Of a stretch of DNA of 64,000 nucleotides, positions 32,540-63,973 are shown piece by piece. A model generated the notes under the pieces. It was not told the DNA's origin, searched no databases, and was given only the letters and a program-made list of their open reading frames with translations. The first letter of the stretch is position 1; each line of letters begins with the position of its first letter. A program made the position numbers and the translations under genes. Source of the DNA: Candidatus Latescibacterota bacterium (GTDB taxonomy: Bacteria; Latescibacterota; UBA2968; UBA8231). The DNA lies in the NCBI GenBank assembly GCA_965242865.1, contig CBDETK010000013.1, positions 1,952,001 through 2,016,000 of the forward strand, read 5' to 3'.

Positions 32540-33631
32540 GTGCCATTCCAAGATCGCTATTCCAAGCTGGACCGGCTCCTGCACCGCTGGGCCTTTTCCT
32601 CCGTTGAAATACAAAAGGCCCTGGCCGATGTTGAGGCCCGCCTCTACGCCCGGCACTTGGCTGGCATTGAAATTGACCGGCCGGTATTTATCACCGCGCT
32701 TCCGCGAGCGGGCACCACCCTCTTGCTTGAAACGCTGGGTTCGCTGGCTACATTCGCCACCCATACCTACCGGAACATGCCGTTTTTGCTCATTCCTCTC
32801 CTGTGGAACGCCCTTTCGCGCCGCTTTCGCGCACCCGCTGCGGTTGTCGAGCGCGCCCACGGCGACGGCATGACCATCGGCTTTGACAGCCCCGAGGCGT
32901 TTGAAGAAGTGGTGTGGCGGGCGTTTTGGCCCGAAAAATACCTCGACGATCGCATCGCTCCGTGGATGGCGACCGACGAGGATGTTCATCGAGAGTTCGG
33001 GCCGTTCATCAAATCCCACCTCGCTAAGATGATCGCCCTAAGAACGGAGAAAAAACCGACGGCGGTTCGCTATCTCTCAAAAAACAATGCCAATATATCC
33101 CGCATTCCCAAAATCATTCAGTTGTTTCCCAATGCCATCGTCCTCGTCCCGTTCCGCAATCCCCGCGACCACGCCGCCGCCCTGTTGCGGCAGCATCTCA
33201 ACTTCCTGAAAATCCACGCGGCCGAGCCTTTTACCCGGCGGTATATGGCGGACATCGGCCATTTCGACTTGGGCGCGAACCTCCGCCCGATTGATTTTGG
33301 GCACTGGTTGAGCCGGGAGGATGCAAAGCCCACCCATACCGCAGACTTTTGGCTCAACTATTGGTGCGCGGCCTACGCGCATATCCTCGCCCAGCCCCAC
33401 CCCAACCTCCTACTCGTCAGCTATGATGCGCTTTGCGCCAATCCCGGCCCAATCCTGCGGCGCGTCGGCGATGCGCTAGGCATGGATAAACCAACGGAGC
33501 TGGTCGCCCTCGGCGGCCGGTTTCGCCGGCCGACCCGCTACGATGCCGATACATTGAACATCGATCCACGCCTGCTCGGCACGGCCTCCGCACTGCACCG
33601 CGAATTACAAAACCGTTCTTATGAGATTTAG
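32540..33631 (+). CDS. PAPS-dependent sulfotransferase
   Basis: PVFITALPRAGTTLL (5'-PSB loop), YLSKNN, VPFRNP (3'-PB). Confidence 0.85.
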   Translation: MPFQDRYSKLDRLLHRWAFSSVEIQKALADVEARLYARHLAGIEIDRPVFITALPRAGTTLLLETLGSLATFATHTYRNMPFLLIPLLWNALSRRFRAPAAVVERAHGDGMTIGFDSPEAFEEVVWRAFWPEKYLDDRIAPWMATDEDVHREFGPFIKSHLAKMIALRTEKKPTAVRYLSKNNANISRIPKIIQLFPNAIVLVPFRNPRDHAAALLRQHLNFLKIHAAEPFTRRYMADIGHFDLGANLRPIDFGHWLSREDAKPTHTADFWLNYWCAAYAHILAQPHPNLLLVSYDALCANPGPILRRVGDALGMDKPTELVALGGRFRRPTRYDADTLNIDPRLLGTASALHRELQNRSYEI

Positions 33632-36000: not shown

Positions 36001-36014
36001 GATCTACTCCTTTT

Positions 36015-37964: not shown

Positions 37965-38000
37965 TTTGTGGCGAAATATAGCCCGTTCTCACCCACCCCT

Positions 38001-39941: not shown

Positions 39942-39944
39942 GGA

Positions 39945-42584
39945 CTACACCCCGCCGGTCGCGGCGAAGATGCGGACGAAGACGATCGATTGCTTCTGGG
40001 TCTGCTCGGCGAAAAACTGGCGTTCTAGGAGGAAGCCAGCGTTCATGGTCAGCTCGTACCCTTGATAGGACGACACATTCGTCAGCAGGGCCGAAAAGAC
40101 GAGGCTGCGGAAGTCATCGACGTAGCTCGGCGACGCCTCGGCTGGACGCTCGATTAGGTTCTCAAAGAGGCTGAATTCAACGCCAAAGTCCAATTGCGTC
40201 CTCGGCAGGAGCAAGTACTGGCCGATAAAGAAGAAGCTCTCGGTCAGCTCGTTGGCGGCCAAATCGGCCAACGCGGTGGGCGTTTCTCGCAGGTACATGC
40301 TCTTCCACTTGGGGTGGAGCGCGAGTTGGTCGCTGGGGCGAATGGTGTAATCGGCCTTGTTGATCAGGCCCAAGAACGAGCGGTCGCGCTTTAGGCGGGC
40401 CTGCGCGCCGAGTTGGTTGAAGCGCTCGTACTTGAGCTTGCCCTCGACGTTCAGGTTGGGAATGCGAAAGTAGCGGGCCTGCGCGTACAGCGCGTTGACA
40501 AAGGTGTCTTGGTTGTCGAGCGGATCGTCAAAATCCGTCAGGCCGATGGGGTCGCGCCAGACGATGCGGTCTTCGGGTAGGGTGTCGGCCACGAGCTTGG
40601 CGTGTTCAAAAAGGGCTAGGTCCAGCCCGGGATACGATTTTTCCACGGTCAGCAGCCCGTAGAACGAGCGGCTCGCGCGGTCGCTACTCAGCTGGTGCTC
40701 GGCGAGCCGGCCGACGGTCAGCCGGGTGCTCTCGGTGATTTTTAAGCCGCCGTACGCGTTGTAGCCGCGGTGGTCGCGCTCGTAGGGGTAGTCGGGCAGG
40801 CGGTCGTCCTCAAAGCGGTCGATGATCGTGTTGTTGTTCATGTCCATGCCAAAGAGGAACTCCGGCGGATCGACCTGATAGCGGAGGAACGGCTCGACGT
40901 AATCCGGGCGGCTGTTCTGGTTTTGGTTGAAGTCGGAGATAAAATCGTTGTTCTCGTCCAGCCCGGGAAAAATCTCCGTGTCGCGGCCCAGCGAGCCGCC
41001 CTGCCCGCCAAACCCTTGGCTCTGGCGATAGCGTTGCCAGTCGGTGAAGCGGTCTTGGTCGTCGTTGTCATCGACAAACTCAAAGAGGTTTTGGGTCTCG
41101 CTGGCGTAGTCGATGACCCCGCCTGGGTCCGCGATAAAGGCCGTGGTGCTGTAATCGGGATCGATGGAGAACACCTCGCCGTAGGCAAAGAAGGGGTAGC
41201 GCTGGTACGAGGCCGTGACGTACCCGGCTTCGGCCGTTTCCTTGTACGCCGGCAGCTTGCGAAAGTTTTGGTTGGGGAAGCGGCGGAAGCGGCGATTGAC
41301 GGCCCATTCGGCCCGCAGGTCAAAGTGGGCGAGGTTGATCAGCTCCAGATCCATGCCCACCACCTCGTGCCCGGTCGGCAGGCCGTAGGCAAAGCGCACA
41401 AAGGTCTGATTGGAGCCGTCGGTGATCTCGTCGCGGGCTTGGGCCACCGGCAGGAAAACCTGCTCGCCCCGAGCATTGGTCTGGAGGTTAGAGGCGATCT
41501 CTATGCGGTAGTCGTTGGACACCACCAGCTCGAATTCGAGCTTCTTGGCCTCGCGGAAGGTGCCCACTTTTTCGGTCGGGCTAAAATCGTTGCGAATGTC
41601 GTAGATGAGCTCAATGGCGTCCGAGCCGCGCACCTCCAAAATGCCCTCGCGCCGCACGCCGCCGCGCACCAAGGGCACGATTTCCGGGTGCAGCTCGCCG
41701 TCGATGATCACCTGATCGACGAAAAACGAGGCCCCGGTTTGCTCGGATTCGGGCGAATCGTCCGCGATGCGGATGATGACCCGCTCGACATTGCCCGTGT
41801 TTTGCGGGCCGGTCAGCAGGCCCTTGAGCGAGTTGTCGCCGAGGCTCAGCTCGCTGCTGGTGTTGGACACATTGACCCACGTCAGGCCTAGCTTGGCAAA
41901 GTCGCCCACTTGGGCCACGCCCCGCGCCCCGAGGAGCCGGGTCGTGTTTTCGAGCGTCGAAGAGCCGCCCGCCTCGTTGAGCGCGGTAAATCCCGGCGCG
42001 TTGAGCCGCGAGCCGAGGAGGGTCAGGGCGTACTTGTCGGCGAGAAAATCCCACTGCAACCCGTTGAACGTGGGCTTGGAAAAGGTCAGGGGGGTGAGCG
42101 TCGTGCGGATGGCGTCGCCCACGGTCAGGGAGGTGTGGAACTGGCCGTGGCTGGCCGACGAGATGACGAGGCTGTCGAACCACCGCCCAAAGCGGGTTCC
42201 CTTGAGGAGGGCACTGCCTTGGCGCAGGGGGCTGGTTTCGGTCCAGTCGTAGATGACCCAGCCGCGGTTGATGTACTGGCCGAACAGGTTGTAGTTGCGG
42301 GTGCCTTCGAGCAGGATGTTGACGTAGCGCTCGTAGTTGTCGCGCGCGTAGTTGCTGTATTCCCAGCCGCGCCACTGGTATTCGTAGTACAGGTTCTGCG
42401 GCAAGTACCACTTGCGCCGGTTGGGGGCCAAGGCCCCGGGATGGATGCGCACCCCGCGAATCCCCGGTTGCTCAACCGGGCGAAAGCCGGTTGATAGCTG
42501 AGCAAAAGCCGTGGATTCTGAGAGTACAAACGCGCACCACAACAGCGCGATCGGCCCTCGGCGGTAAAGGGTTGTAAGCCTCAT
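39945..42584 (-). CDS. Large exported protein, probable outer-membrane beta-barrel with DxNxN Ca-binding loops
   Basis: AGGAG RBS; signal peptide; DDNDDQD, DENNDFISDFNQN, DMNNN; alternating beta-strand C-terminus. Confidence 0.55.
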   Translation of the reverse strand: MRLTTLYRRGPIALLWCAFVLSESTAFAQLSTGFRPVEQPGIRGVRIHPGALAPNRRKWYLPQNLYYEYQWRGWEYSNYARDNYERYVNILLEGTRNYNLFGQYINRGWVIYDWTETSPLRQGSALLKGTRFGRWFDSLVISSASHGQFHTSLTVGDAIRTTLTPLTFSKPTFNGLQWDFLADKYALTLLGSRLNAPGFTALNEAGGSSTLENTTRLLGARGVAQVGDFAKLGLTWVNVSNTSSELSLGDNSLKGLLTGPQNTGNVERVIIRIADDSPESEQTGASFFVDQVIIDGELHPEIVPLVRGGVRREGILEVRGSDAIELIYDIRNDFSPTEKVGTFREAKKLEFELVVSNDYRIEIASNLQTNARGEQVFLPVAQARDEITDGSNQTFVRFAYGLPTGHEVVGMDLELINLAHFDLRAEWAVNRRFRRFPNQNFRKLPAYKETAEAGYVTASYQRYPFFAYGEVFSIDPDYSTTAFIADPGGVIDYASETQNLFEFVDDNDDQDRFTDWQRYRQSQGFGGQGGSLGRDTEIFPGLDENNDFISDFNQNQNSRPDYVEPFLRYQVDPPEFLFGMDMNNNTIIDRFEDDRLPDYPYERDHRGYNAYGGLKITESTRLTVGRLAEHQLSSDRASRSFYGLLTVEKSYPGLDLALFEHAKLVADTLPEDRIVWRDPIGLTDFDDPLDNQDTFVNALYAQARYFRIPNLNVEGKLKYERFNQLGAQARLKRDRSFLGLINKADYTIRPSDQLALHPKWKSMYLRETPTALADLAANELTESFFFIGQYLLLPRTQLDFGVEFSLFENLIERPAEASPSYVDDFRSLVFSALLTNVSSYQGYELTMNAGFLLERQFFAEQTQKQSIVFVRIFAATGGV

Positions 42585-42832
42585 GATCCATCTCCTAACG
42601 AGGGAAAGCCCGCCTAGACCAGCGAGCGCAGACAATATACGCCCCGTTCCCACTGCCTACCAAGTCCGCACTTTCTGGCCGCAAACTTGTTTCGCCTATG
42701 TGGACTTTTTTATTATACTGTAAAATCACTTTAGCCGTATCCCCTATCCGAAAGGAGGTTGTGCAGCGTGCTGAACGACCATTCCCACATCCCTTTTTTT
42801 CTTCATCTCTTCCAATCAAGGAGCGTAGCACC

Positions 42833-43744
42833 ATGAGAAAGTTCGGCTTTTTCGCCTTGTCTTGCGGGCTGGCGTACCTGCTGAGCACGGCCGCTTTTGC
42901 CCACGTGGGCGTGACCGTGTTCTATCCCCAAGTGCCCGACCCGGCAGCCATCACCATCGACGGCAATGACGACGACTGGGGTTGGTACGACCCGGCCCTC
43001 GCCCTCAATCAGCCCGATTTCTTCGACCGGGCCAGCGATTTCGTCGAGTTGTCGGACTACGATTTCACCATCCTCAACGGCTGGTCTGCGCCGCCGGACA
43101 ACAAGTGGTACGGCTTTGCGCGCTTCGTCGATGACACCCTCAAGTACGATTCGCCCGTCAAGGAGTGGTGGAAAGACGATTGCTTGCAGATAACCGTGGA
43201 CGCCGATCACCTCGGCGGCAACATCCTCGGTTCCGACCTAGAGCAGATCGCCAATGGCCAGCGCTGGCACGTGCGCATTTTCCCGCCCGCCGGCGAGTCC
43301 CTGCTGCCCAATCAAACCCCCTTCTTCTACAGCCAGCTAGAGTTCATCGACTCCGAAGAGCTGCTCTGGGGAGTCCAGCCGGAGTTTTTTGAGGCAGCGT
43401 GGACCGTCCTGCCAGCCGGCGCCGAAAACCTGACGGTTGGCCCGGTCACGTACACCTACGAGTGGCGGGGTGCTTTGTGGGATATCTGGGGCCTGAGCGA
43501 GAGCGAGAGCGTGCGGCACGTGTTCGCCGAGGACGACGTGATCCACCTCGGCTATCGCCCGCTCGACGCCGACCGCCCCGGCGGTGGGCGCAAGCATTCC
43601 ATGTACATCAACGACGGCAGCCAGTCGCAGGACGTCGACGCTTCGCAGATGCCCGACTTCTGGGCGCTGGCGGCCCCGGAGACCAACGTGGAAAACGAGA
43701 CTTGGGGCCACATCAAAAACAGCATGTCCCAACGCCTCAAGTAG
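42833..43744 (+). CDS. Secreted CBM9/DOMON-like putative sugar-binding protein
   Basis: AAGGAG RBS; signal ending AFA; ITIDGNDDDW, DDCLQITVDAD, YTYEW; C-terminal TWGHIK. Confidence 0.6.
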   Translation: MRKFGFFALSCGLAYLLSTAAFAHVGVTVFYPQVPDPAAITIDGNDDDWGWYDPALALNQPDFFDRASDFVELSDYDFTILNGWSAPPDNKWYGFARFVDDTLKYDSPVKEWWKDDCLQITVDADHLGGNILGSDLEQIANGQRWHVRIFPPAGESLLPNQTPFFYSQLEFIDSEELLWGVQPEFFEAAWTVLPAGAENLTVGPVTYTYEWRGALWDIWGLSESESVRHVFAEDDVIHLGYRPLDADRPGGGRKHSMYINDGSQSQDVDASQMPDFWALAAPETNVENETWGHIKNSMSQRLK

Positions 43745-43761
43745 GAGTTCGCAGCGCAATC

Positions 43762-43795
43762 ACGAGGGAGGGGGGCCGCGGCCCTTCTCCCTCGT
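43762..43795 (+). terminator. GC-rich hairpin, probable terminator
   Basis: ACGAGGGAGGGGGGCC-GC-GGCCCTTCTCCCTCGT followed by a T-rich tract. Confidence 0.6.
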
Positions 43796-43805
43796 TTCAT
43801 TTTCT

Positions 43806-45893
43806 ATGAAAAAACGCGATAAAACCCTAGCTGGCGCAGAAAGGGAGAACCGCTTCTACCCACTTTTTTCGCCTCCCCGGCGGTGGATGCGGTGGGCGAT
43901 GTTGGCTTATGTCGCGCTGATGTGCAGCCCTGGGGCGGCGCAAGAGTGGTGGCAGCTCGGTGGGCAGGGCGGCGTCTCGCCGCTGGACGTGGCGGATTTC
44001 AGCCTGATGATAGACGATGCAGCTGCTTCCCAAGCACTCCAGCCCTTTGAGCTCGACCCGCACGAAAACATCTTGCCGCAACTCGGCCCTTGGCAGCGCT
44101 GGCGCTTTCCCACGGACCCGCAATTCCGCCCCGGCCATCCGCGCTTCTGGACGGACATCAACCACAACACCCTATACAAGGCCACGGAAATTTTTCTCTT
44201 CGTCGATGGAGACTCGACCACGTACGTGGAGCGGCGAGATGGGGAGCAGATTTTCTATACCATAGACTTGGGCATCCCAGTGCCGGTAGAGCGCTTTGTC
44301 TTTTTCCCGCCCGAAGGCGTCAGCCCCGAAAGCGACGAGCCTTTCAGGCCCAATTACATCCTCAAGTCCTATAGTCTGACGGCCGACAAAGCCGAGACCG
44401 GCATTCTGCAAGAGGAGATAGAGCGCGGGTTCGTCTGGCGGGGCGACGGGCCGTGCTGTCCGCTGGCCATCCCCCTCGCCTACGAGGAGCGCAACACCGA
44501 CGCGGTGACCGAAATCGCGTTTTCCACCCAATACCTCCGCTTCTTCCGCCTCATCGCCATCCCCGACGGCTTTACCCTGTACGGCGACCCCATCGTCACG
44601 CGCTCGGCCTTTGCCGAGATGGAAATCTACGGCCGGGGTTTTGCTCCGCAGGCCATCTACGAGTCGCAGATCATAGATTTGGGGCGAGAGGTCAATTTTG
44701 GGCAGGTGCGCTTGGGAGTGAGCCAATGGCGCAAGGACGGAGAGCACCTGCTGCCATCCGACGGTCCAACCCGCGCCCAAGTGGAAATCCGCACCGGGCG
44801 CGACGACACCCCAACGGCTTATTTCGGCTTTGACGATCTGGGCGCCCATGTAGAGGTGACCAAGAAGCAGTGGGATCGGCTGATCCCCCTAGAGACGCGC
44901 GGCGCGACCGTAGCGGTCGGCTATCGCGGGCCGGTGGCCGAAGACCTGCAAAACTGGAGCTTCTGGTCCCTGCCGTTGGAGGGCTCGGGCCAGCACCCGC
45001 GCCTGCCGTGGGGTCGGTATTTCCAATTGCGCGTCCAGCTAGCAACGGACGCCCTGTGGGAATTTGCCCGCCTCGATTCCCTGCAAATCGAGATCGCACC
45101 CCTGCTGGCCGACCGGGTCGTCGGCGAGATCGTCCGCGCGGACCAACCCCATCCCCAAGGCGGGCAAGTGCGCGTCCCAGCGGGCGAGAAAACCCCGTTC
45201 ACGTACGACCTAGGCGTGGAATTTGCCCGTGCGGACCGCGTCGGCTGCGACGCCGTGCGCGTCTCGGCACCGGCGGAAGCCACGTTTCGCTATTTGGCGA
45301 TGGGCGACCCGCTCAGCGCGGTAGAGCCAGACAGCCTGCTGCGCGAAGCAAGCGGCTTTGTCGTATTCTTGCCCCGCCCCTTGCACCCAAGCGGCGATCA
45401 GCGGCTGCGCCTCGGCCTCGAAGCCGTGCTGTACGGCGAGGCCGGCGAATTTGGCGGCGAAGTCTTTAACCGCCGCGAGCCGAGCTTGTTGCAGCGCGTC
45501 GAGGGGGGCGACGTCAGCGCGGAGCTAGGCTCCAACCAGTTGCTCGTCGTGGCGTCTGCCGCTTCCAAGAGCGGGGTACTGGGCGATGTCGAGGCGGGTA
45601 GCGGCGCGTTTACCCCCCAAGGCGACGGCGTAAACGACCTGTTACCCATACGATACACCCTCTTCCGGGTGAGGCAGTCGTCCCAAGTGCAAGTCCGAGT
45701 GTACGCCCTCGACGGTCGGCCGGTGTGGCAGACGCAACCGAGTGTGCAGGGCGCGGGACGCCATGCGGTCTATTGGGATGGGCGCGATAGCACCGGCCAA
45801 AGAGTCCCTCCCGGCACCTATTTGGCGCGGGTGGAGGTGGAAACGGATAAGGGACGAGAGGTGCGGATGCGGCCGGTGGCCGTGGCGTACTAA
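43806..45893 (+). CDS. Secreted protein with C-terminal FlgD Ig-like domain (paralogue of 36015-37964)
   Basis: RTGRDDTP, NWSFWS, TPQGDGVND..WDGRDSTG..PPGTY; ends AVAY; alternative start at 43887. Confidence 0.75.
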   Translation: MKKRDKTLAGAERENRFYPLFSPPRRWMRWAMLAYVALMCSPGAAQEWWQLGGQGGVSPLDVADFSLMIDDAAASQALQPFELDPHENILPQLGPWQRWRFPTDPQFRPGHPRFWTDINHNTLYKATEIFLFVDGDSTTYVERRDGEQIFYTIDLGIPVPVERFVFFPPEGVSPESDEPFRPNYILKSYSLTADKAETGILQEEIERGFVWRGDGPCCPLAIPLAYEERNTDAVTEIAFSTQYLRFFRLIAIPDGFTLYGDPIVTRSAFAEMEIYGRGFAPQAIYESQIIDLGREVNFGQVRLGVSQWRKDGEHLLPSDGPTRAQVEIRTGRDDTPTAYFGFDDLGAHVEVTKKQWDRLIPLETRGATVAVGYRGPVAEDLQNWSFWSLPLEGSGQHPRLPWGRYFQLRVQLATDALWEFARLDSLQIEIAPLLADRVVGEIVRADQPHPQGGQVRVPAGEKTPFTYDLGVEFARADRVGCDAVRVSAPAEATFRYLAMGDPLSAVEPDSLLREASGFVVFLPRPLHPSGDQRLRLGLEAVLYGEAGEFGGEVFNRREPSLLQRVEGGDVSAELGSNQLLVVASAASKSGVLGDVEAGSGAFTPQGDGVNDLLPIRYTLFRVRQSSQVQVRVYALDGRPVWQTQPSVQGAGRHAVYWDGRDSTGQRVPPGTYLARVEVETDKGREVRMRPVAVAY

Positions 45894-45945: not shown

Positions 45946-46290
45946 ATGAATGCCATTGAAGCCCATATCGACAACGCGACCATTGAGGCCATAGCCCAAC
46001 TGATCGTCGAACGCTTTGAGCCGGAACGAGTCATTCTCTTCGGCAGTCATGCCCGCGGAGAGGGGGGATCGCATAGCGATGTGGACCTGCTAGTCGTGCT
46101 CCGCACCGGCACAGAAAAGCTACCGCCCGGCAATCCAATCCGTCGAGCGATTGCCGAGTGTTTCGTCCTGCCCGTTGATGTACTGATCCGCTCGCCGGAA
46201 GTTCTCGCCGAACAGCGCAATGACCCATATTCCTTGATGCACCAAGTCTTGGAAGAAGGGAAGGTATTGTATGAGCGGCACGTTGCCTGA
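45946..46290 (+). CDS. Minimal nucleotidyltransferase (MNT) antitoxin
   Basis: ILFGSHARGE...SDVDLLVV...PVDVL...EGKVLYE. Confidence 0.9.
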   Translation: MNAIEAHIDNATIEAIAQLIVERFEPERVILFGSHARGEGGSHSDVDLLVVLRTGTEKLPPGNPIRRAIAECFVLPVDVLIRSPEVLAEQRNDPYSLMHQVLEEGKVLYERHVA

Positions 46291-46372
46291 ACGGGACTGG
46301 TTCGATAAGGCAAATCAAGATTTGGAGATGGCGCGTCGGGCGTTGGGTCCGAAAACACCTTCTCATTTATGA
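46271..46372 (+). pseudogene. Truncated HEPN toxin
   Basis: Overlaps the MNT end; MSGTLPERDWFDKANQDLEMARRAL stops after 33 aa. Confidence 0.75.
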
Positions 46373-46398
46373 CCTAATGAAAATGAAGAGAGGCTGTT

Positions 46399-47319
46399 TT
46401 GCGTAGAATCATACAGATCATCTCGGCAGGCGTCCACAAGGTGGGCGTCTTCCTTGTAGAAGAAGTCCGTACGATCTGGTATATTTTGTTTTTCGCCGCA
46501 GTAATCATAGTTTTCGGGTTTCTTTATACCTATCTGACTCCAATAGGGCACGGTATCGGGCAAAATCTCAAGCCGCTTTCTGACATTACACTTTGCACAG
46601 GCATATACTTCAGTATTGTCACGATCTCCTCGTTAGGGTACGGGGATATGCACCCGATGGGGTTCTCAAAAGCTCTCGCCTGTATAGAAGTCCTCTTAGG
46701 ACTCGTAGTCATAGGTATTATGATAGCTAAAGTTACTTCGCGACGTCCGTCATACCACGTTGAGCGTCTTTTCAGTTCTAATGCTCAAAAGCGACTTGAA
46801 AATTTTGCGACAGAATTTGCGGTATTTCACGGCGATTTTGAAACAATTATTCCGGATCTTCGGGACGCCTATCAGAGAATTCCTGGCCAAAGACCCTCCG
46901 AGGACAAGAGCGAATTGGTCGAACGTTTCCAAGAAATTATCACTGCATTCCAATCACAATGTACTGCGTTGCATACCTACTTTTCGGATGAGACTAGTCG
47001 GGGAAATTACTTCGAGATCGTCCCAGCTACTGCAACGGTGCAGGTAGGTAATGCCGTTTGCAACGCCTTCTTTATCCTTAGTCAACTTCTTGTAATCCTG
47101 CCGCCTCAAGCGGAAACTGAAGCTGAAGTTCTTGATAGACGCAGCAGACAGGGTATTTCAAGGGCAATTAACGCCCAGATAAAGGCATGTGATTTAGTTG
47201 ATCAATATGCGACTGATCAGGGTACACTTGATGTATTCCAGCGCATTCAAGATACTTGTAGGCAGTTGCCAGAAAGTTATTTCGCAGAAGTATCGCAACC
47301 CGACCAACTCCTACAATGA
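46399..47319 (+). CDS. Potassium-channel (Ion_trans_2) domain protein with helical C-terminal domain
   Basis: IYFSIVTISSLGYGDMHP filter motif between two TM helices; start uncertain (TTG). Confidence 0.8.
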   Translation: MRRIIQIISAGVHKVGVFLVEEVRTIWYILFFAAVIIVFGFLYTYLTPIGHGIGQNLKPLSDITLCTGIYFSIVTISSLGYGDMHPMGFSKALACIEVLLGLVVIGIMIAKVTSRRPSYHVERLFSSNAQKRLENFATEFAVFHGDFETIIPDLRDAYQRIPGQRPSEDKSELVERFQEIITAFQSQCTALHTYFSDETSRGNYFEIVPATATVQVGNAVCNAFFILSQLLVILPPQAETEAEVLDRRSRQGISRAINAQIKACDLVDQYATDQGTLDVFQRIQDTCRQLPESYFAEVSQPDQLLQ

Positions 47320-47355
47320 TCCTGACGAGGCACAATAACTTTAAGGGGGTGTAAG

Positions 47356-47745
47356 ATGAGCGAACAGCTTCTTCACGGGCACGAATTATCGCTAGAGCTG
47401 GAATGGATGAGGTGCTGGGGCGATGTCTGGTGCAAGCTCAACCTTGTAAACCTAAACCACGAGTATTTCGACAAGGATGTCTCTGGCGTCTATATAATTT
47501 GGCACGGAGGGCCAACCCCCAAGGTGGTGTACGTCGGTCAGGGAAATATCAAGGATCGCATAGCCAAACACCGGGAAGATCCAGAGATACAGCGGTATGA
47601 ACATCTGGAGCTTTATGTCACCTGGGCACCAGTACCTGAGGAATCCCAAGACGGTGCAGAAGCGTATTTGGCTGAGCAATGGTCCCCAAAAGTCGGCGAA
47701 CGCAATCCAGACGCCCTGCCCATAAAGGTAAACTCTCCGTGGTAG
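47356..47745 (+). CDS. Small GIY-YIG nuclease-like protein
   Basis: SGVYIIW...VVYVGQGNIKDRIAKH...AEAYL. Confidence 0.65.
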   Translation: MSEQLLHGHELSLELEWMRCWGDVWCKLNLVNLNHEYFDKDVSGVYIIWHGGPTPKVVYVGQGNIKDRIAKHREDPEIQRYEHLELYVTWAPVPEESQDGAEAYLAEQWSPKVGERNPDALPIKVNSPW

Positions 47746-56338: not shown

Positions 56339-57040
56339 CTAGCTGATACTGCTCAGGGCGGCGGCGAAGGAAAGCCAAATAATCATTATGAGACCAATCC
56401 CAACGTAGGCTTTGCTGCGATCAAACTGCCCCACAATAGACAGACCGAGACCAGTGACCACAATGCTCCAAACGACAAAGGGATCAATGAGGGACAATAA
56501 GTGCCCACTGAAGCTTCGGAGAGCCTCTTCGGAGAGGAACACCCCCAAGCCTATTTGCACTAGCGGTGTCTCTGTGGCCAATATTAGCAATGTCTTGATA
56601 ATCTGTTGGGGAATAGCGATCAACCCCGCATAGACTACTATGGTTAGGACTTGGCCGTAGGAGAGCAGGCCGCCTAGTAATTTGCCCACCAGTAGGCAAA
56701 GCGCAGAAAAAATAAAAACAAAAGTGAAAAGCACGATAGGTGTAACGATCAGAGTACTAACCCGCATGATGCCTTGGGTTTGGTATTGCTCCACGATCTT
56801 GCGCTCTTCGGCGGACATACCCTGCATCCGTTGCTGCATCCGTTCTTGGTTGAATTCAGTCGTAAAGGGCAGGATAAGTACCGCGGCAATCGTGGCAACT
56901 GCGACGTTCAGAATGGCAGGTACAAGCCAGTCGGCAGCACTGCGCTCGCGGGCGAGATCTTCAAAGGTCTCTCTCGGCGCGTAGAAGAGGCGAATCATGC
57001 GGTTGATAAGGCCGATTTCAGCCTGAGATGTGGGTTCCAT
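56339..57040 (-). CDS. Yip1 domain membrane protein
   Basis: LFYAPRETFE.L; five TM helices; LIDPFVVWS; GGAGG RBS. Confidence 0.75.
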   Translation of the reverse strand: MEPTSQAEIGLINRMIRLFYAPRETFEDLARERSAADWLVPAILNVAVATIAAVLILPFTTEFNQERMQQRMQGMSAEERKIVEQYQTQGIMRVSTLIVTPIVLFTFVFIFSALCLLVGKLLGGLLSYGQVLTIVVYAGLIAIPQQIIKTLLILATETPLVQIGLGVFLSEEALRSFSGHLLSLIDPFVVWSIVVTGLGLSIVGQFDRSKAYVGIGLIMIIWLSFAAALSSIS

Positions 57041-57132
57041 GAAACCTCCTTCTTATGAAAAGAGATGGATTTATATCTATAACATCGTGTTTACTAAGAA
57101 CGTGTTTGATATATAGCTAGCAGATGAACCGA

Positions 57133-57933
57133 TTAGAGCGGCGTTGGAATAAAGGCCGATAGTTCCAGAGCCAAAACCGACATATTGCGTAGAGCATGAT
57201 ACATAATAGAAGGGTAAAGAGAGCGCGTTCCCTGATACAAAAAAAACGAAAGACTCTGTGACATAAACGTAATGATAAATTCCCTTAGATGTTCTCCTGA
57301 AAACGGAGAGTAATGGTGATAGCTGAAGATAAAAGCGGTAATAGTGAAGCCGAGAACGAATCCCAATCGATTCCTTAAAGCAGGGAAAATCAGACCGGTA
57401 AAATATGCCTCCTCTATAATAGGGGCAATCAGTAAAGCACGAACTGAATGTGGAATGATAAGGAGAAATATAGTACGAAATTCGTCCCAGCCGGCTTCCT
57501 CAACCCAAGGTATTAGAATAGGGTTGGGGCTTATTAAGTGGATATCAATTCCCCGGAGCTTCATGTAAAGGAAAAAGACCAATATACTTACTCCGGATAT
57601 TAACAATAAAAAAATAAACGTTAAAACTAATTTTTTTGATTCCCTGGGAATTTGGAGGGACAATCCCAATGTTTGGGTGTTTAGAGCCTGTTTTTCTATC
57701 TTGGAAAATGCCACGACAATTAAAATAAGTAAGGCATAAGGAATAGTACATAATGATATGAAAAGGTAGTCGCTCAAAGCGAATAGATTAAGTATAGTAT
57801 CGACAGTATAGCGAAAGAAAAAGAACATAAAAATGGCGAGTAGAAAGGTAGAAAATATTCTACATCGTATATTTTCAAACTTTCTGGTAAATACGGGATG
57901 AATGTATTGGTCCATTGTGTGGATCTTTTTCAC
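57133..57933 (-). CDS. CPBP-family (Abi/CAAX) intramembrane metalloprotease
   Basis: APIIEEAYF, FSYHH, SLYPSIMYHALRN motifs; multiple TM helices. Confidence 0.85.
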   Translation of the reverse strand: MKKIHTMDQYIHPVFTRKFENIRCRIFSTFLLAIFMFFFFRYTVDTILNLFALSDYLFISLCTIPYALLILIVVAFSKIEKQALNTQTLGLSLQIPRESKKLVLTFIFLLLISGVSILVFFLYMKLRGIDIHLISPNPILIPWVEEAGWDEFRTIFLLIIPHSVRALLIAPIIEEAYFTGLIFPALRNRLGFVLGFTITAFIFSYHHYSPFSGEHLREFIITFMSQSLSFFLYQGTRSLYPSIMYHALRNMSVLALELSAFIPTPL

Positions 57934-57961
57934 GAGTACCCCTGCTTATTCCATTAGTTGT

Positions 57962-58020
57962 TGGTGAATCTTTTGAGCTACCAGCCTCGACAAGACGACT
58001 GGTAGCTCATCAATTCACCA
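57962..58020 (-). terminator. Long stem-loop downstream of the precursor gene (attenuator or mRNA stabiliser)
   Basis: TGGTGAAT..TGAGCTACCAG pairs with CTGGTAGCTCA..ATTCACCA; no clear U-tract. Confidence 0.6.
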
Positions 58021-58086
58021 TGTAGAGGTTGTGGGTTTCATCTAGGTTGGCTTCTTACAAACTTTGCTCGTTGTTTTTCCGTCTTC

Positions 58087-58359
58087 TTACGGATTGCGAG
58101 CGTACGATGCTTCTCGGTTTTGTCTTGAGGATTCTAGGTTCCCGTAAAGGGCCATCGCAGCAGCAGTGATGGCGGCGTCAGCCGCTAACGCAATGCCTAT
58201 CAGTGCCCAAGGAAGTGCTCCGCCCTTGATATCCTGAGCCTCAGAAGGCGTAATAGGCTTTGAAACGATCTCACTGTTGCTGGGTGCGATACTATAGGCG
58301 CACAAGCCCAAGGCTGTCGCCAGAGCTGTTACACCTTTAGTTTTGATAAGTTTAGTCAT
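58087..58359 (-). CDS. Putative bacteriocin/RiPP precursor with double-glycine leader
   Basis: AAAGGAG RBS; ITPSEAQDIKGG matches the LSxxELxxIxGG consensus; 43-aa core ALPWALIGIALAADAAITAAAMALYGNLESSRQNREASYARNP; adjacent to a C39 peptidase. Confidence 0.75.
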   Translation of the reverse strand: MTKLIKTKGVTALATALGLCAYSIAPSNSEIVSKPITPSEAQDIKGGALPWALIGIALAADAAITAAAMALYGNLESSRQNREASYARNP

Positions 58360-58417
58360 GATGTTCTCCTTTCTTTAGGAAGAAGATGACAACCCTTACC
58401 TCCACATGGTGAATATT

Positions 58418-58963
58418 TTATTTTTTTGTCAATATCAAAGTCTCTCCTTTCCATATACGATTGAATGCCCCTTTTCCAATTCTGAGCCTGCCGATGGCTG
58501 GATCCCGCAAGATGACCTCACCGTGTTCGTTGATCTGGTCTAATACCGCAAAGTGGCCATCCTCAACAAAGACTACCGCAGGAAGCGGTTTGCTCTGTAG
58601 GTCATCTATATTTAGCCTCCAAGTTTCAGCATGTACTCCTTGACTTTCAGCGTATTCCATCAACTCGAATAGGGAAGAACCTGTCTCGTCTAATTTAATC
58701 ATGTCTTCAATATCTGTAAGCTCGCGGTTTATACCTAGGCTATCCAAGACCATTTTAAGAGCTACAGGACCACAATTCATCTTACGTGTTTGTAGAATGA
58801 CTCCTTCTGTTCCCTTGTATTCTGCACCTTTCAACCATGCCGCCAAGTTACGGTATATGATTTCACTCGTAATGGATCCGGCGACTAATTGCAAGGTAGC
58901 AGCAAAAAAAATGACTAATACTATTGCTGCTCCAATCGTTAATTTACTTTTCCAAGATGTCAT
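58418..58963 (-). CDS. Stand-alone C39 cysteine peptidase with N-terminal signal/anchor
   Basis: QTRKMNCGPVALKMV (Q, C), GHFAVL (H), RDPAIG (D); hydrophobic N-terminus; no ABC domains. Confidence 0.9.
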   Translation of the reverse strand: MTSWKSKLTIGAAIVLVIFFAATLQLVAGSITSEIIYRNLAAWLKGAEYKGTEGVILQTRKMNCGPVALKMVLDSLGINRELTDIEDMIKLDETGSSLFELMEYAESQGVHAETWRLNIDDLQSKPLPAVVFVEDGHFAVLDQINEHGEVILRDPAIGRLRIGKGAFNRIWKGETLILTKK

Positions 58964-58991
58964 AATTGAAGGTATCTTTTGTGATAGTACA

Positions 58992-61505
58992 CTATAGGGC
59001 TGGTTCTTGAACAGCCTTTATTTTTTTTTCGACTCGGTCAGCGTAGCTATACATATCTATTTCGACGAAAATTTTTGCCGCCATCGTCCACAAGGCGACA
59101 GCTTTTGCTTTTGACTCTTTTTCGGCAGCCACATCTCCCATACCTGTATAGGCAAGTCCCCGTCCCAGTTCGTCTCCGATCCTTTTGCATATAGACAAGG
59201 CTCTACTGTAACAAGATTCGGCTTCACTCCACTGTCCTCTAAGCTGATGTATCTCGCCCAGACTGGAAAGCCCGTAGGCGGTGCCCTTTTCGTCATTCTC
59301 GGCTTCGTATATCCCCAGTGCAGTCTTCTGCTCTTGGTGCGCGTCTTCATATTGTCCGCATTGGATATATACGAGACTTAAAGTAGTTCGGGCTGCTGCA
59401 ATAGTTTGCTGATTAGGCGAGTCTTGAGTGAGACGTAGGTAATTGCATAAGAATTCCTTGGCTTTATCAAATTTTTTACTATGAGCGTACAATTTTCCAA
59501 GCGATAAATAGCACTCAGTCACATCGGACGACATACCTATACGTTCAAATAGACTTATAGAGTGATGCAGGTAGGATTCTGCCAGAGGAAAATCTCCACG
59601 ATAGAAATGTACATTCGCCAGTACCTTATATGAGTACGCTTTTCCCTTTTCATCCGCCAAATTTTGATTAGCCTCTAAGGCAGCTTTGCCGTATTCTAGT
59701 GCTTTTTCCATATTTCCCATTAGAAGGTGTATAGAAGAAGACAATCCATAATGCAATGCCAATCCCCCTTTTCTATCCATCTTTTTATCTATGTCAATAG
59801 CCTGTTCCAGTAAAGTATGTGCTTCGTGGATACGGCCTTGAATTTTTCTTAAATTTGCAAGTGAATTGTACTGGTTAGCAATTCCCTCGGAGTCTCCGAT
59901 TTCTTTGTAAATAGCTAAAGATTCCTCGTAAAGTTTCTCTGCTGAATCCAAGTCGTCTTTTAGAAGATGCACAGTACCCAAGTTGCTGGTAACCAAGGCA
60001 TAATCTTCTCGACAATTTACTTTTTTGTGAAGACTCTGTCCTTTAATATAAAAATCCGCAGCTTCGGCGAGATTTCCTTGTAGCTGCGCGATAAATCCTT
60101 TGCAGGTATATCCTACGGCTAGCTTCCTTGTACTTTCATCATCCTCAGCTTGTGAAAAAATTGATATGGCCTCATCATAACATTGATCTGCCCTGTCTAA
60201 TTCGCCTTTCAGCTCATAAACTTTGCCTTCGGAGATCAGTATGTTAGCCAATCCTGTAGCTGTACTACCCCGAAGACGATTCGCTTCTTTTGCCAATTCG
60301 ATTTGAGATAAGGCGGATTCTAGACGACCGTTCTGCCAGTGCTCGTCAGCAGAGGCTAAAATGATTTCCCATTCTTCGGGATCACCTTGCTGGTCAACTC
60401 GTTCAAATACCTCGCTTTCAGCAGGGCTAAATTTGCAATGAGTAGGAAGCTCGGTATCTAGGTTGAGCTGTGGGAGCACATCCAAGATCTCTTGATACTC
60501 TTTTCTGTCTGCTGCAGAGATGGTTCGGTAGATATGGTCAAATTCAATCAGACTGTCTATAACTGACTCCTCTGGAAGAAAAGGATTAGGCCACAGATGC
60601 GCCCACCAGAAGTGGATCAGACGCACCAAGGGATCGCTATGTTTGCGGGCTATGTACTCAACCGCGGCGTACCGCTTTGTGCTCTCGGCTTTTGCCTTCT
60701 CAGGATCGGAGAAATTATGATGATGGTACAGGTGATAAGAAGAGGCCTGGACACTGATAAATTGTCCACCCGCCGCCCCTAGGCGGTAGCCAAGTTCCCA
60801 CCCTTCACAGAAAGGTATGGCATCATCGAATCCCCCTACTTTTTCTAGCAGCTTTAACGGTATGGCCATATTGTGAGGGTATAATCCAATCCAGCCTAGG
60901 GCCGGTTCTGCGATGGTTTCGTAAAGATCGTGAAATTCCCTCTGCATAGTACGGACTTCTTCAAACGGATAGCCTCCTTCCACTGCTTTTTCGGTAATAC
61001 TCTCGAACTCATTGCACACCATACTCTCTGTGACAATCATCTTATCTCGGTGTAGCTCTAAGCACCGACGCAGTGAATAAGGCAGTGAGGTATCGGCGAG
61101 TGAACCTGTCTGAGGATTTTGGAAATACTCTAGGTCGGGAAGGACATATTGATAGCCACATAATACTGACTTCTGACCATTCTCTTTATAGGCTTCTAAG
61201 TAGCACTGGAGTAGTTCCGGGGCTGGTAATGCATCTCCATCCAAGAAAACGACCAACGAGCCTAGTGCCCGTTCAACCCCTCTATTCCGTGCTCGGCATC
61301 GGCCCTGATTCACTGCAAAACACTCAACTTTGAGGTTATGCATCCTTCGCGATTCGAGCATTGCTCCGGTCCCGTCTGTAGAACCGTCATCAACTACTAC
61401 TATTTCAAAACGATCGCTTGGAATATTCTGATTTTCTAAGCCACTTAACACGAGACGGAGACGGTCTTTCTGGTTATACGTGGCTATGATTACACTTATA
61501 TCCAT
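58992..61505 (-). CDS. Family 2 glycosyltransferase with long C-terminal TPR array
   Basis: MDISVIIATYNQ, VVDDGSTDGT, ARNRG, FLDGD; about ten TPR-like units; ATG at 61505 overlaps the upstream TAA (TAATG). Confidence 0.9.
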   Translation of the reverse strand: MDISVIIATYNQKDRLRLVLSGLENQNIPSDRFEIVVVDDGSTDGTGAMLESRRMHNLKVECFAVNQGRCRARNRGVERALGSLVVFLDGDALPAPELLQCYLEAYKENGQKSVLCGYQYVLPDLEYFQNPQTGSLADTSLPYSLRRCLELHRDKMIVTESMVCNEFESITEKAVEGGYPFEEVRTMQREFHDLYETIAEPALGWIGLYPHNMAIPLKLLEKVGGFDDAIPFCEGWELGYRLGAAGGQFISVQASSYHLYHHHNFSDPEKAKAESTKRYAAVEYIARKHSDPLVRLIHFWWAHLWPNPFLPEESVIDSLIEFDHIYRTISAADRKEYQEILDVLPQLNLDTELPTHCKFSPAESEVFERVDQQGDPEEWEIILASADEHWQNGRLESALSQIELAKEANRLRGSTATGLANILISEGKVYELKGELDRADQCYDEAISIFSQAEDDESTRKLAVGYTCKGFIAQLQGNLAEAADFYIKGQSLHKKVNCREDYALVTSNLGTVHLLKDDLDSAEKLYEESLAIYKEIGDSEGIANQYNSLANLRKIQGRIHEAHTLLEQAIDIDKKMDRKGGLALHYGLSSSIHLLMGNMEKALEYGKAALEANQNLADEKGKAYSYKVLANVHFYRGDFPLAESYLHHSISLFERIGMSSDVTECYLSLGKLYAHSKKFDKAKEFLCNYLRLTQDSPNQQTIAAARTTLSLVYIQCGQYEDAHQEQKTALGIYEAENDEKGTAYGLSSLGEIHQLRGQWSEAESCYSRALSICKRIGDELGRGLAYTGMGDVAAEKESKAKAVALWTMAAKIFVEIDMYSYADRVEKKIKAVQEPAL

Positions 61506-63973
61506 TATAGAAACTCCACTCTCAGGTGATATTGGCACTTCAAATTTGAGATATGCTCCCATCCATCCTTACCTTCTATTAGGAAATAAGGTAGCGTCTT
61601 AGCAGAGTTGGAAAACATGAGTCGTTGGTTATCTAAGTGGCCAAAATAGTAGGAATCAAAAGATCGAGTATTTCGCTTTATGTATGTTTTTAGCTTAGGA
61701 TCTTCGACATTGTATTCGGTTATAGAAACTTCGCCGATAGCCATACTGAGGAATTCGACGGGTATCCAGCCCGCTTCTTCTAGATAAATTTCGGCCCACG
61801 TGTGGCCTACTATAGGCTCGTCTATACTTCTGTATTCGTACACCTGTTCAGAAATTGGGAATCCCAACAAGGTTCCACATCTCTCGCGAGCAGGAATACC
61901 GACCATTCTACATAGAGCTATAAAGGTTCTGGCAAAGTGAATACAATTGCCACCGATGTTATTCAGCAAAACAGCCGAACTATCAGCTAGACCCATCGCA
62001 GGTATCTTAGTCTTTCTGAATTTTTTAGTTCTGATTAACTTGCTGTAGAAGGCCCAGGCCAGTTCTTTTTTGTCGCAGGGCGCGGATGCTTCGAGTATCT
62101 CGGAAAGCACTTGCTCCAGTTCTGGCAGTTTGCCTAAAATTTCGTCGGTATATAAATATTTCGATCTCTCCCAGTCCGAAAGGATGTACTCGCCTCTACC
62201 TTTAGCATTATACTCACTGACCTCAAGTTCACAAGTATATGAAAAATTTGCCGAATTTGAGTTTACAGTGAAAGGATATGCATAGAAGAAGCCAAACTTG
62301 CTGCGTAAACAGTGTCTCATATTCTCTGGAAAACAGTCGATTAGACTAACTGCCTTTTGTTCTTTTGTCTCCAAAGGGTATGGCATAAAAACCCTTAACT
62401 GTTGATCTGGTTTTTCAGTAAAATCTATGTCGTAAGAGTAGGTTATTCTGTAACGTTGGGTATGATATTTTGAACGTACGTTGCCTATTTCGTCTATATC
62501 GAAAAAGACACGTCGTCTTTGATCACAGGCCTTGTACTCAGCCTCAAAAAATCGAGCTTCTCTTTCGTAGAGCCAATTCCAAGAGTCTATTTTGTCGAAG
62601 AAGTACTGATTGCCCTGTCGCCAGTGAGGTATCCCTTTTTTAATACCTTGCCGTAGCATTTTATGTAGTGATTCCATTGATAGAGTGGAAGGAGTAGTGC
62701 CATCGAGTTGCTGTAAGAATTCGTTTTCACTTACTAGAAATTTAGGATCGAAACTGAGTGCCGTGTACCGGTTCGTAAAATAATCATCTACCCAGTCTGC
62801 AACGACATCTCTTGCACACCATCGATTCAATAAATTGGCAAGAGCTTCCAATTGAATCTCCATCTTATCCCAGACACCGAGAGTTTTCCTTAGTATTTGT
62901 GTAATATTGTGATAACTAAATCTATCTGGATCTATTTTTAGGCCCAAATTAACCTCTTCGAGTCTATCGAGATGAAGCTCCTGATCTAAAGTGGTTGCTA
63001 TACCGATAGGCAAAACTCCATGAAGCAAAGCACTATATAGGGTCTCTATATCTAAATCTCCAACTATTACATGTATCCTTTCCCATGGCGGCTCTCTATA
63101 GATTCCATTCTCTACATGGCTGTCAGGCCGCTTTACTCCTCTGGTAGATTCTACTAGTAAACGATAAGGGAGTTCCACTCCAGATGCATCCTGTCTCAGT
63201 ATATCTTCTTTTAGGAGATTTTGGGGATCTTTTATATAGATGACAGGGAATGATCCATCCCGTTTGCGAAGCACCTTTCGTTTGCCTCTCTTTTTATCGG
63301 TAGTCGGCAAGAGGGGCCCTATGTAGTGGAACCCGTCAGCACCGAAATCTAGCGTGGGATATAGTTCGGGTATATCGGCGATTAGATAGTACTTATTCTT
63401 CTTCTTGATTTCGCCAGCTTTGTTTTTTAAGTACTCTGCAAACGTGTCTCTTGATGATAGAACAGATAGAGTCTGAAGAGGGATACGATAGCCTAGGCGA
63501 TCGTATCCTTGAATTACTTCAGCTTCGTCAATACCTTCCAAGTGTGCTGCAATTGAAGCAGTTGGTTTCAAGGAATGTATAATTAGATCAGGCTTATACT
63601 CCTCAATCAAAGACCGTTCGGATTCTACGCAAGAGTCGATCCATTCCGTATCACATGCTCTATAGTCCAATAGCTCAATCTGGTCTCTGTGAATCTCTAG
63701 CGGCAGCGTTTTAACACTGCATATTTCTTCTCCTTTTTGGAAACATTGCTCCGCCCAAGGTCCATCTCCTGCCAGCCGAACCTCATAGCCTCGGCGACGT
63801 AATTGTCGGGCAATCTCACAAGCTCGCCTAGTATGAACAGCACTACAACCATGGAACAGGACCATAATAGACAATGCGCTACGGTCTAATATACTGGTTT
63901 CCGATGCTCTTCTGAGGCTACTGCTCCACCACAATAACCTTGACACTAATTTTTCTCTGATAGATGTACGCAA
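61505..63973 (-). CDS. Fusion of a GT-B (GT1/GT28-like) glycosyltransferase domain and a transglutaminase-like domain
   Basis: HTRRACEIARQLRRRGYEVRLAG, HYIGPL, HGVLPIGI...DQ; GNCIHFARTFIALCRMVGIPAR, HTWAEIY...GWIPVE. The frame is open to the window edge, so the start (TTG with GAGG upstream) is uncertain. Confidence 0.8.
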   Translation of the reverse strand: MRTSIREKLVSRLLWWSSSLRRASETSILDRSALSIMVLFHGCSAVHTRRACEIARQLRRRGYEVRLAGDGPWAEQCFQKGEEICSVKTLPLEIHRDQIELLDYRACDTEWIDSCVESERSLIEEYKPDLIIHSLKPTASIAAHLEGIDEAEVIQGYDRLGYRIPLQTLSVLSSRDTFAEYLKNKAGEIKKKNKYYLIADIPELYPTLDFGADGFHYIGPLLPTTDKKRGKRKVLRKRDGSFPVIYIKDPQNLLKEDILRQDASGVELPYRLLVESTRGVKRPDSHVENGIYREPPWERIHVIVGDLDIETLYSALLHGVLPIGIATTLDQELHLDRLEEVNLGLKIDPDRFSYHNITQILRKTLGVWDKMEIQLEALANLLNRWCARDVVADWVDDYFTNRYTALSFDPKFLVSENEFLQQLDGTTPSTLSMESLHKMLRQGIKKGIPHWRQGNQYFFDKIDSWNWLYEREARFFEAEYKACDQRRRVFFDIDEIGNVRSKYHTQRYRITYSYDIDFTEKPDQQLRVFMPYPLETKEQKAVSLIDCFPENMRHCLRSKFGFFYAYPFTVNSNSANFSYTCELEVSEYNAKGRGEYILSDWERSKYLYTDEILGKLPELEQVLSEILEASAPCDKKELAWAFYSKLIRTKKFRKTKIPAMGLADSSAVLLNNIGGNCIHFARTFIALCRMVGIPARERCGTLLGFPISEQVYEYRSIDEPIVGHTWAEIYLEEAGWIPVEFLSMAIGEVSITEYNVEDPKLKTYIKRNTRSFDSYYFGHLDNQRLMFSNSAKTLPYFLIEGKDGWEHISNLKCQYHLRVEFL

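Follow-up and report, generated by a model that had tools for sequence, protein, structure and literature searches.

How does a peptide with a double-glycine leader reach its mature form when no dedicated transporter is encoded beside it? Such leaders are textbook markers of export by peptidase-containing ATP-binding cassette (ABC) transporters (PCATs), with cleavage in the cytoplasm. The question is raised by a 64,000-nucleotide stretch of contig CBDETK010000013.1 from a Candidatus Latescibacterota bacterium (hereafter the window), in which the gene of a small precursor peptide adjoins that of a stand-alone C39 double-glycine peptidase. A first-pass annotation had proposed that the precursor carries two targeting signals, is exported by the Sec route and is activated outside the cytoplasm by a membrane-anchored C39 protein, in a pathway decoupled from any PCAT, and every element of this proposal gains comparative support, as far as sequences can give it. 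We consider it reasonably probable that the precursor undergoes Sec export followed by C39 cleavage at the double glycine outside the cytoplasm, independently of a PCAT, that this would yield a bacteriocin-like membrane-active peptide, and that two companion proteins of the CPBP and Yip1 families would protect the producer. The pair belongs to a cluster of six genes arranged head to tail on the minus strand (window positions 56339-63973) in the order glycosyltransferase (GT) with transglutaminase-like domain, GT2 with tetratricopeptide repeats (TPR), C39 peptidase, precursor, CPBP protein and, last, Yip1/YknW-like protein.

The precursor gene (58087-58359, minus strand, as are all genes and features of the cluster given below) is the open reading frame (ORF) at the coordinates given by the first-pass annotation and encodes 90 residues. 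An AGGAG ribosome-binding site (58366-58370) lies 6 nt 5' of its ATG and is invariant in the window and in the two closest related loci, L001 and L002. Given that no further Met occurs before residue 69, the N-terminal segment of the precursor must be translated. Residues 1-25 (58285-58359) had been described as Sec-like, and the charge and hydropathy counts, made with simple scripts of our own, agree: three Lys are found in residues 1-8, residues 9-27 are uncharged and the 15-residue Kyte-Doolittle hydropathy (KD15) reaches 1.73, which is of signal-peptide grade, so that a basic n-region is followed by an uncharged h-region. After a polar spacer comes the double-glycine leader (residues 26-47, 58219-58284), which reads I36-x-x-x-E40-A41-x-x-I44-K-G46-G47. 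Among 11 sequences the positions I-12, E-8, A-7, I-4, G-2 and G-1 are invariant or near-invariant, and this pattern of conserved acidic and hydrophobic positions before a GG, GA or GS end fits the double-glycine consensus. The codons of the glycine pair had been placed at 58224-58219, which is exact, and G46 and G47, the predicted C39 cleavage site, are invariant in 11/11 sequences. The leader does not stand at the N-terminus of the protein, as the 25-residue signal-like segment precedes it. The core (residues 48-90, 58090-58218) is formed by a 25-residue hydrophobic stretch, presumably helical (19-residue hydropathy, KD19, ~ 2.0), and a polar tail that ends in SYARNP.

Ten homologues of the precursor, with 51-99% identity, all keep this design, including the Sec-like N-terminus. 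Moreover, 20 of the 21 invariant columns among the 11 precursors fall in residues 1-47, the sole one after the glycine pair being Y72; the leader is thus constant and the core variable, a pattern typical of bacteriocins. No Pfam or NCBIfam (June 2026) family matched the precursor, and it has no entry in the protein Atlas. Within the signal-like hydrophobic stretch, Cys20 (58300-58302) is shared by 11/11 sequences and does not lie in a lipobox. A lipoprotein signal was considered and dropped, since the 'LGLC' motif has Leu at -1, a residue unfit for a lipobox.

The C39 gene (58418-58963) encodes 181 residues, of which residues 55-181 (58421-58801) match PF03412 with 96.2 bits against a cut-off of 22. 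As described before, the protein begins with a basic and hydrophobic segment: two Lys precede a single hydrophobic helix (residues ~ 8-29, 58877-58942; KD19 2.5), the predicted membrane anchor. Q58, C64, H137 and D154 are invariant in 20/20 stand-alone members, and their catalytic and helper roles, with Cys64 (58772-58774) as the catalytic residue, are those that we presume from alignment to known C39 peptidases. The nearest solved relative in a profile comparison with the PDB, in terms of sequence-profile similarity, is LahT150 (6mpz, E 6e-27), and among NCBIfam models the one for an NHLP-type PCAT N-terminal domain scores best. With 181 residues, one helix and no ABC domains, the protein is not a fusion of the PCAT or ABC transporter maturation and secretion (AMS) type, and its 14 close homologues all have 181-194 residues. 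When a family profile was compared with 1.84 billion representative proteins, 21,622 matches were obtained, 209 of them at E <= 1e-30. The best 150 of the 21,622 are all 110-345 residues long, none having PCAT length, and at 50% identity the matches listed form at least 150 clusters of this stand-alone family. The FapD family was rejected for this protein (NF058616 34.3 bits against a cut-off of 330, with no fap genes in the window), as were the FilB and PA2778 families on NCBIfam comparison.

The neighbourhood of such C39 genes was surveyed in one scan of representative genomes, which gave 25 loci: 16 with a stand-alone C39 protein, 8 with one of PCAT length (682-742 residues) and one of another kind (295 residues). 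The 16 stand-alone ORFs have 166-251 residues as listed, that of L011 (110 residues) being cut by the contig end. At 16/16 of these loci a precursor gene is found directly downstream of the C39 gene, as one small gene or, in L015, as two. The 17 sites formed by the window and these loci cover Latescibacterota, 'Poribacteria', Gemmatimonadota, Bacteroidota/Ignavibacteria and Thermoanaerobaculia, and a common architecture is seen in 18/18 of their precursors: it begins with 1-3 basic and 13-26 uncharged residues and continues through a polar spacer to a GG, GA, GS or AG site and a core of 26-72 residues. Acidic and hydrophobic positions precede the site when a one-residue shift is allowed, and several other family precursors have candidate signal-peptidase sites of textbook form, such as VSA/G, VNA/M and VSA/Q. 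Furthermore, the Cys count is even in every family core (0, 2, 4 or 6). At 4 of the 8 PCAT loci a pattern search found precursors of 45 residues, in which the leader starts from the first residue and no hydrophobic N-terminus is present. Pfam and NCBIfam hold no family for the 13 distant precursors or for the recurrent neighbour proteins. Among the latter, a protein of ~ 170-190 residues with a signal-like N-terminus follows the precursor gene at Bacteroidota and Ignavibacteria loci (L006 3494-4045, L008 1279-1809, L009 11082-11597, L010 1659-2189, L011 850-1413, L013 4237-4767 and L016 11197-11706); it has no Pfam or NCBIfam match and may be a periplasmic immunity or accessory protein.

On which side of the membrane would the peptidase then work? 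Four lines of evidence point outward. The N-side flank of the C39 helix is the more positive one in 17/20 family members, and a membrane-grade hydrophobic segment stands ahead of the domain in 104 of the 117 assessable relatives among the best 150 of the 21,622 matches. The third line is given by natural fusions, in which an anchor is followed by a CxxC thioredoxin domain (AhpC-TSA or Redoxin profiles) and the C39 domain (P0054, P0078, P0138, P0147 and P0132). P0156 is similar to these five, without the profile match, and on reading the six sequences no second helix was seen between the domains. Membrane-anchored thioredoxins of the ResA/TlpA/DsbE type are extracytoplasmic, and the CPHC of the fusions is a DsbA-type motif. 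Finally, 11 loci combine a Cys-containing core with available upstream sequence, and in 10 of them, L004 being the exception, a membrane-anchored CxxC thioredoxin gene lies just upstream of the C39 gene. No such gene is found in the four loci with a Cys-free core (the window, L001, L002 and L003), and MauE/DoxX membrane proteins are encoded in 3 loci. Given the charge bias, the segments ahead of the domain, the fusions and the company of thioredoxins and MauE/DoxX proteins with Cys-containing cores, an outward-facing C39 domain is supported at the level of sequence comparison. In L014 (148-657) the thioredoxin-like gene upstream of the C39 gene consists of two adjacent ORFs (106 and 62 residues) in different frames, the second beginning 1 base after the stop of the first, which points to a frameshift, either real or due to a sequencing error.

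The description of the pair as transporter-free was borne out in the window, where neither the cluster nor the 33 other large ORFs contain ABC or HlyD domains. Only 27 nt separate the start of the first gene of the cluster from the end of the window, and L001 and L002 were therefore consulted for what lies upstream. L001 is a complete Candidatus Latescibacterota chromosome, with 90% identity for the C39 protein and 91% for gltX, and in both loci the six genes of the window recur in unchanged order. The next gene upstream is in each case gyrB-like and on the opposite strand, followed in L001 by a gyrA-like gene and a BanI-type restriction enzyme. Hence the PCAT/HlyD pair just upstream, which the first-pass annotation had named as the finding that would contradict it, is seen in neither relative. 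L002 (JAAXHD010000248.1) is labelled Candidatus Poribacteria, yet its gene order, including the gyrB-like neighbour, matches the Latescibacterota chromosome; either it is mis-binned or the whole region is shared. On the other side of the cluster, L001 (12884-15941) has an Oar-like TonB-dependent receptor (CarboxypepD_reg and barrel) and a TPR protein between the Yip1 gene and a DEAD-box helicase gene, and both are missing in the window.

Two companion genes downstream of the precursor bear on the proposed activity. The first encodes a CPBP/Rce1-like intramembrane protease of 266 residues (57133-57933; PF02517 49.3 bits against 22.4). The family is defined by the motifs EExxxR, FxxxH and HxxxN, and the protein belongs to it with EEAYFT, in which the Arg of EExxxR is replaced by Thr, FSYHH and HALRN. 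CPBP genes were found in the Cys-free clade only, namely in the window, L001 and L002, together with two that flank the pair in L003. In class II bacteriocin loci CPBP/Abi proteins confer immunity, and by analogy the protein is a probable self-protection or tail-processing protein. The second gene encodes a Yip1/YknW-like membrane protein of 233 residues (56339-57040; PF04893 64.5 bits against 28.6), for which the NCBIfam model YknW_fam gives 71.8 bits, below its cut-off of 110. A Pfam Yip1 protein is present at 13/17 loci, window included; L008 has a weak YknW match only, L003 lacks such a protein, and L012 and L013 lie on contigs that break off too soon to tell. An ABC ATPase of ~ 260 residues is encoded in 4/14 distant loci and a HlyD-like protein adjoins Yip1 in one locus, and by analogy these ATPases next to Yip1 resemble a YknWXYZ-type protection pump rather than a PCAT. 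YknW, a protein of four helices, enables the YknXYZ pump to defend Bacillus against the SDP peptide toxin (PMC8277102), and Yip1 proteins are noted in leaderless and circular bacteriocin clusters (PMC11580447).

The two genes upstream of the C39 gene encode proteins with no membrane segment. One is a GT2 glycosyltransferase with a long TPR array (856 residues, 58992-61562). The other, encoded by the first gene of the cluster (822 residues, 61505-63973), has a weakly GT-B-like N-terminus, with GT4 matches below cut-off, and a C-terminal transglutaminase-like cysteine-protease core with a GNC..F motif (PF01841 49.9 bits). Both occur in the window, L001 and L002 only, GT2+TPR being found at none of the 14 other loci, which suggests a clade-specific accessory. 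The PDB similarity of the two proteins is generic and gave no functional or structural lead, and PADLOC on the locus returned generic TPR matches only. In glycocin clusters (sublancin/SunS) a GT2 gene adjoins the gene of a GG-leader peptide. A glycocin cluster was rejected here, given that the window clade has no PCAT, no thioredoxin and no core Cys, and that the PDB matches of the GT2 are generic.

From the gene content, sequence features, conservation and co-occurrence observed, we infer an export route, a topology, a cleavage and a biological activity. The 90-residue precursor would enter SecYEG by means of its N-terminal signal (residues 1 to about 23-25), which would then be removed by signal peptidase I or kept as a transient anchor. 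The GG leader (~ 26-47), by now outside the cytoplasm, would be bound by the C39 domain of a protein whose single N-in helix anchors it in the inner membrane and whose catalytic part lies on the periplasmic side. A cut after G47 would give a core of 43 residues with its 25-residue hydrophobic helix and polar tail, from which the CPBP protease-like and Yip1/YknW-like proteins would protect the producer. The two cytoplasmic GT-containing proteins would be a clade-specific addition, and a long RNA stem bracketing the precursor ORF, described below, would probably set the transcript level.

Several points weigh against this scheme. The candidate signal-peptidase sites of the window's precursor are SIA/P and AYS/I, and Pro at +1 blocks signal peptidase I, so that cleavage after SIA is doubtful given the near-invariant Pro26 at this position. 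The charge bias of the window's own C39 helix is only +2, and 3/20 family members have the opposite flank bias, by one charge. An all-periplasmic scheme has no role for the two cytoplasmic GT proteins, the peptide has no evident way through the outer membrane, and the immunity assigned to CPBP and Yip1 is argued by analogy only. A PCAT may be encoded elsewhere in the genome of the window. Lastly, the segment after the glycine pair, with its KD19 of ~ 2.0, could act as a stop-transfer helix, the product then staying in the inner membrane.

This last point is the basis of an alternative that shares the export and cleavage steps with the scheme above and that we regard as unlikely, in which the product is a resident small inner-membrane peptide. 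The precursor would insert as a hairpin and C39 would trim its periplasmic N-terminus, leaving a 43-residue N-out/C-in peptide that works with Yip1 and CPBP and whose tail (..SYARNP) lies in the cytoplasm, where the TPR-GT or the transglutaminase-like protein could act. The core helix is indeed of membrane-spanning grade, with a near-invariant (>= 90%) Asp61 in its middle, the polar C-tail is conserved, and the lack of membrane segments in both GT proteins would agree with a cytoplasmic tail, as would the co-occurrence of GT genes and Cys-free core only in the clade of the window, L001 and L002. However, the net charge of the tail, 0 to +1, makes a weak stop-transfer signal, and a variable core behind a conserved leader is what bacteriocins display. 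Moreover, the Cys at both ends of the cores in the wider family must meet on one side of the membrane, and the thioredoxins point to full export.

Usual cytoplasmic processing, in which the hydrophobic stretch would be a long leader part or a tether, the C39 domain would lie inside and an unlinked ABC exporter would be used, appears improbable. The NHLP-type PCAT domain as best NCBIfam match of the C39 protein and the small ABC ATPases of the distant loci are in keeping with it, and the characterised C39 domains of bacteriocin systems are all reported to be cytoplasmic (PMC5557850). Yet the thioredoxin-C39 fusions behind a single anchor and the link between core Cys and thioredoxin genes speak for the other side of the membrane, no ABC gene is present in the window, L001 or L002 loci, and the ABC ATPases elsewhere are ~ 260-residue subunits next to Yip1 and not PCATs. 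Very improbable, too, is the reading of the glycine pair, helix and charged tail as a sorting signal of GlyGly-CTERM, exosortase or MrtS type, with C39 or CPBP as the sorting enzyme and a 20-residue N-terminal cargo. The shape of the window's peptide after the glycine pair and the location of its conserved part before it would suit such a signal, as would weak NCBIfam matches of the CPBP protein to MrtS and MrtJ, but these reach 31.6 and 22.2 bits, far below the cut-offs of 130 and 75, and no rhombosortase or exosortase was found among the window proteins scanned. A cargo of ~ 20 residues is implausible, and in 13 other loci, where CPBP is absent, the part after the glycine pair is conserved, Cys-rich and functional-looking, so that a CTERM sorting system was rejected. 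That the 90-residue protein is an ordinary two-helix membrane protein with an incidental GG, the C39 having another substrate, is scarcely credible: the substrate of FapD also lacks a canonical GG leader (PMC5557850), but the gene pair is adjacent at 17/17 sites, a GG-type motif occupies a constant place after the polar spacer in 18/18 precursors, and neither G46 nor G47 varies.

At the RNA level, two arms of 32 nt, the 5' one at 58384-58415 and the 3' one at 58012-58043, can pair over ~ 29 base pairs into a long-range stem around the entire precursor ORF. With this stem, the 466-nt region folds at -167.9 kcal/mol (z -7.3), and 0/100 shuffles were as good; at each of three loci, namely the window, L001 and L002, the duplex beats 30/30 shuffles. 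Neither arm varies among these three loci though the peptides are 74-89% identical. After the precursor gene, folding gives a further hairpin of 15 pairs (57974-58009) with no U-run, within a 157-nt intergenic segment (z -3.9), with one compensatory pair among the three loci. It is plausible that the stem forms a processing or stabilising cassette for the precursor message. The bracketing stem was rejected as a family-wide feature, as it is absent in the 11 other loci tested (z -0.9 to +1.4), and Rfam gave no match on 57800-58500. An invertible DNA segment with 32-nt inverted repeats was likewise rejected: no invertase is encoded close by, three genomes agree in the orientation, and an RNA stem fits better. 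Promoter-like sites (10, against 14.3 expected) and terminator-like sites (9, against 6.6) were not above those of shuffles.

Concerning the origin of the cluster, the G+C content at third codon positions (GC3) is 0.39-0.48 in the five genes at 57133-63973, compared with 0.78-0.79 in the flanking gltX and DEAD-box helicase genes, and the Yip1 gene, with 0.59, is intermediate. Given this contrast, 57133-63973 is, by its composition, a horizontally acquired low-GC island. The GC contrast and the insertion site are the same in L001 and L002, and between the genome of the window and L001 the island proteins have diverged about as much as gltX (~ 90%). From this similar divergence it follows that the island was probably present already in the common ancestor of the two, and its GC content has not approached that of the host since. 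Elsewhere in the window, several large proteins encoded at 33631-45890 have C-terminal domains of type IX secretion (FlgD_ig or CHU_C), which fits a diderm host of the Fibrobacteres-Chlorobi-Bacteroidetes (FCB) group, and a second low-GC patch (46000-47500, GC 0.46-0.49) contains an Ion_trans_2 channel-like gene (46399-47316).

How does the arrangement compare with known systems? Its nearest precedents are FapD and the Sec-dependent bacteriocins. With PCAT/AMS proteins (PCAT1, ComA, LahT) the window's C39 shares the peptidase family, the catalytic residues and the leader type of the substrate (GG/GA/GS). It differs from them in having no fused or adjacent transmembrane or ATPase domains and an N-terminal anchor of its own and in probably facing outward, and its substrate bears an extra Sec-type signal before the leader. 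Enterocin P is a Sec-dependent class II bacteriocin, and SDP is further processed after export. With Sec-dependent class II bacteriocins and the SDP toxin the proposed system would have in common the Sec export of the peptide and, for SDP, self-protection of the Yip1/YknW type (PMC8277102 for YknW), whereas those peptides have neither a double-glycine propeptide nor a C39 protease. Sec signals on precursors of RiPPs (peptides ribosomally synthesised and then modified post-translationally) are called rare in the bufferin paper (PMC12452194). Bufferins, as portrayed there, have a Sec signal like the window's precursor but are modified in the cytoplasm by a multinuclear non-heme iron-dependent oxidase (MNIO), undergo signal removal only, and have no GG leader and no C39 (PMC12452194). 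There is a precedent for an exported C39: FapD, from the Fap amyloid system of Pseudomonas, is described as a Sec-exported, periplasmic C39 that needs its Cys and whose substrate is unknown, and its authors call this class uncharacterised (PMC5557850). Like FapD, the window's protein would be a stand-alone C39 that carries an N-terminal export signal and whose periplasmic targets have been exported by Sec. The difference is that the window's locus encodes a clear GG-leader peptide next door, whereas the FapD substrate is without a canonical GG leader (PMC5557850). A full-text literature search, supplements not covered, found no description of precursors with Sec signal and GG leader together with a stand-alone exported C39.

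Taken across the family, it seems somewhat more plausible than its opposite that the locus belongs to a widespread undescribed class in diderm bacteria from the FCB group and neighbouring lineages. Members of the class would export GG pre-pro-peptides by Sec and mature them entirely in the periplasm by a tethered C39, for Cys-containing cores together with a DsbA-like thioredoxin that is sometimes fused to it, and would be protected by a protein of the Yip1/YknW type, so that the jobs of a PCAT would be split between Sec and a free peptidase. To this the Latescibacterota clade would add the cytoplasmic GTs and the bracketing RNA stem. Genome-mining tools for bacteriocins and RiPPs lean on the link between GG leader and PCAT, and if the proposal is true, a class of peptides would have been missed or mis-annotated in Gram-negative lineages. 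It would also have to be explained how peptides of this kind get through the outer membrane. If true, the proposal would furthermore mean that signal, GG leader and small protease can make up a compact transporter-free cassette, and that C39 proteases can act on their own in the periplasm as maturases of defined substrates, which would bear on FapD as well.

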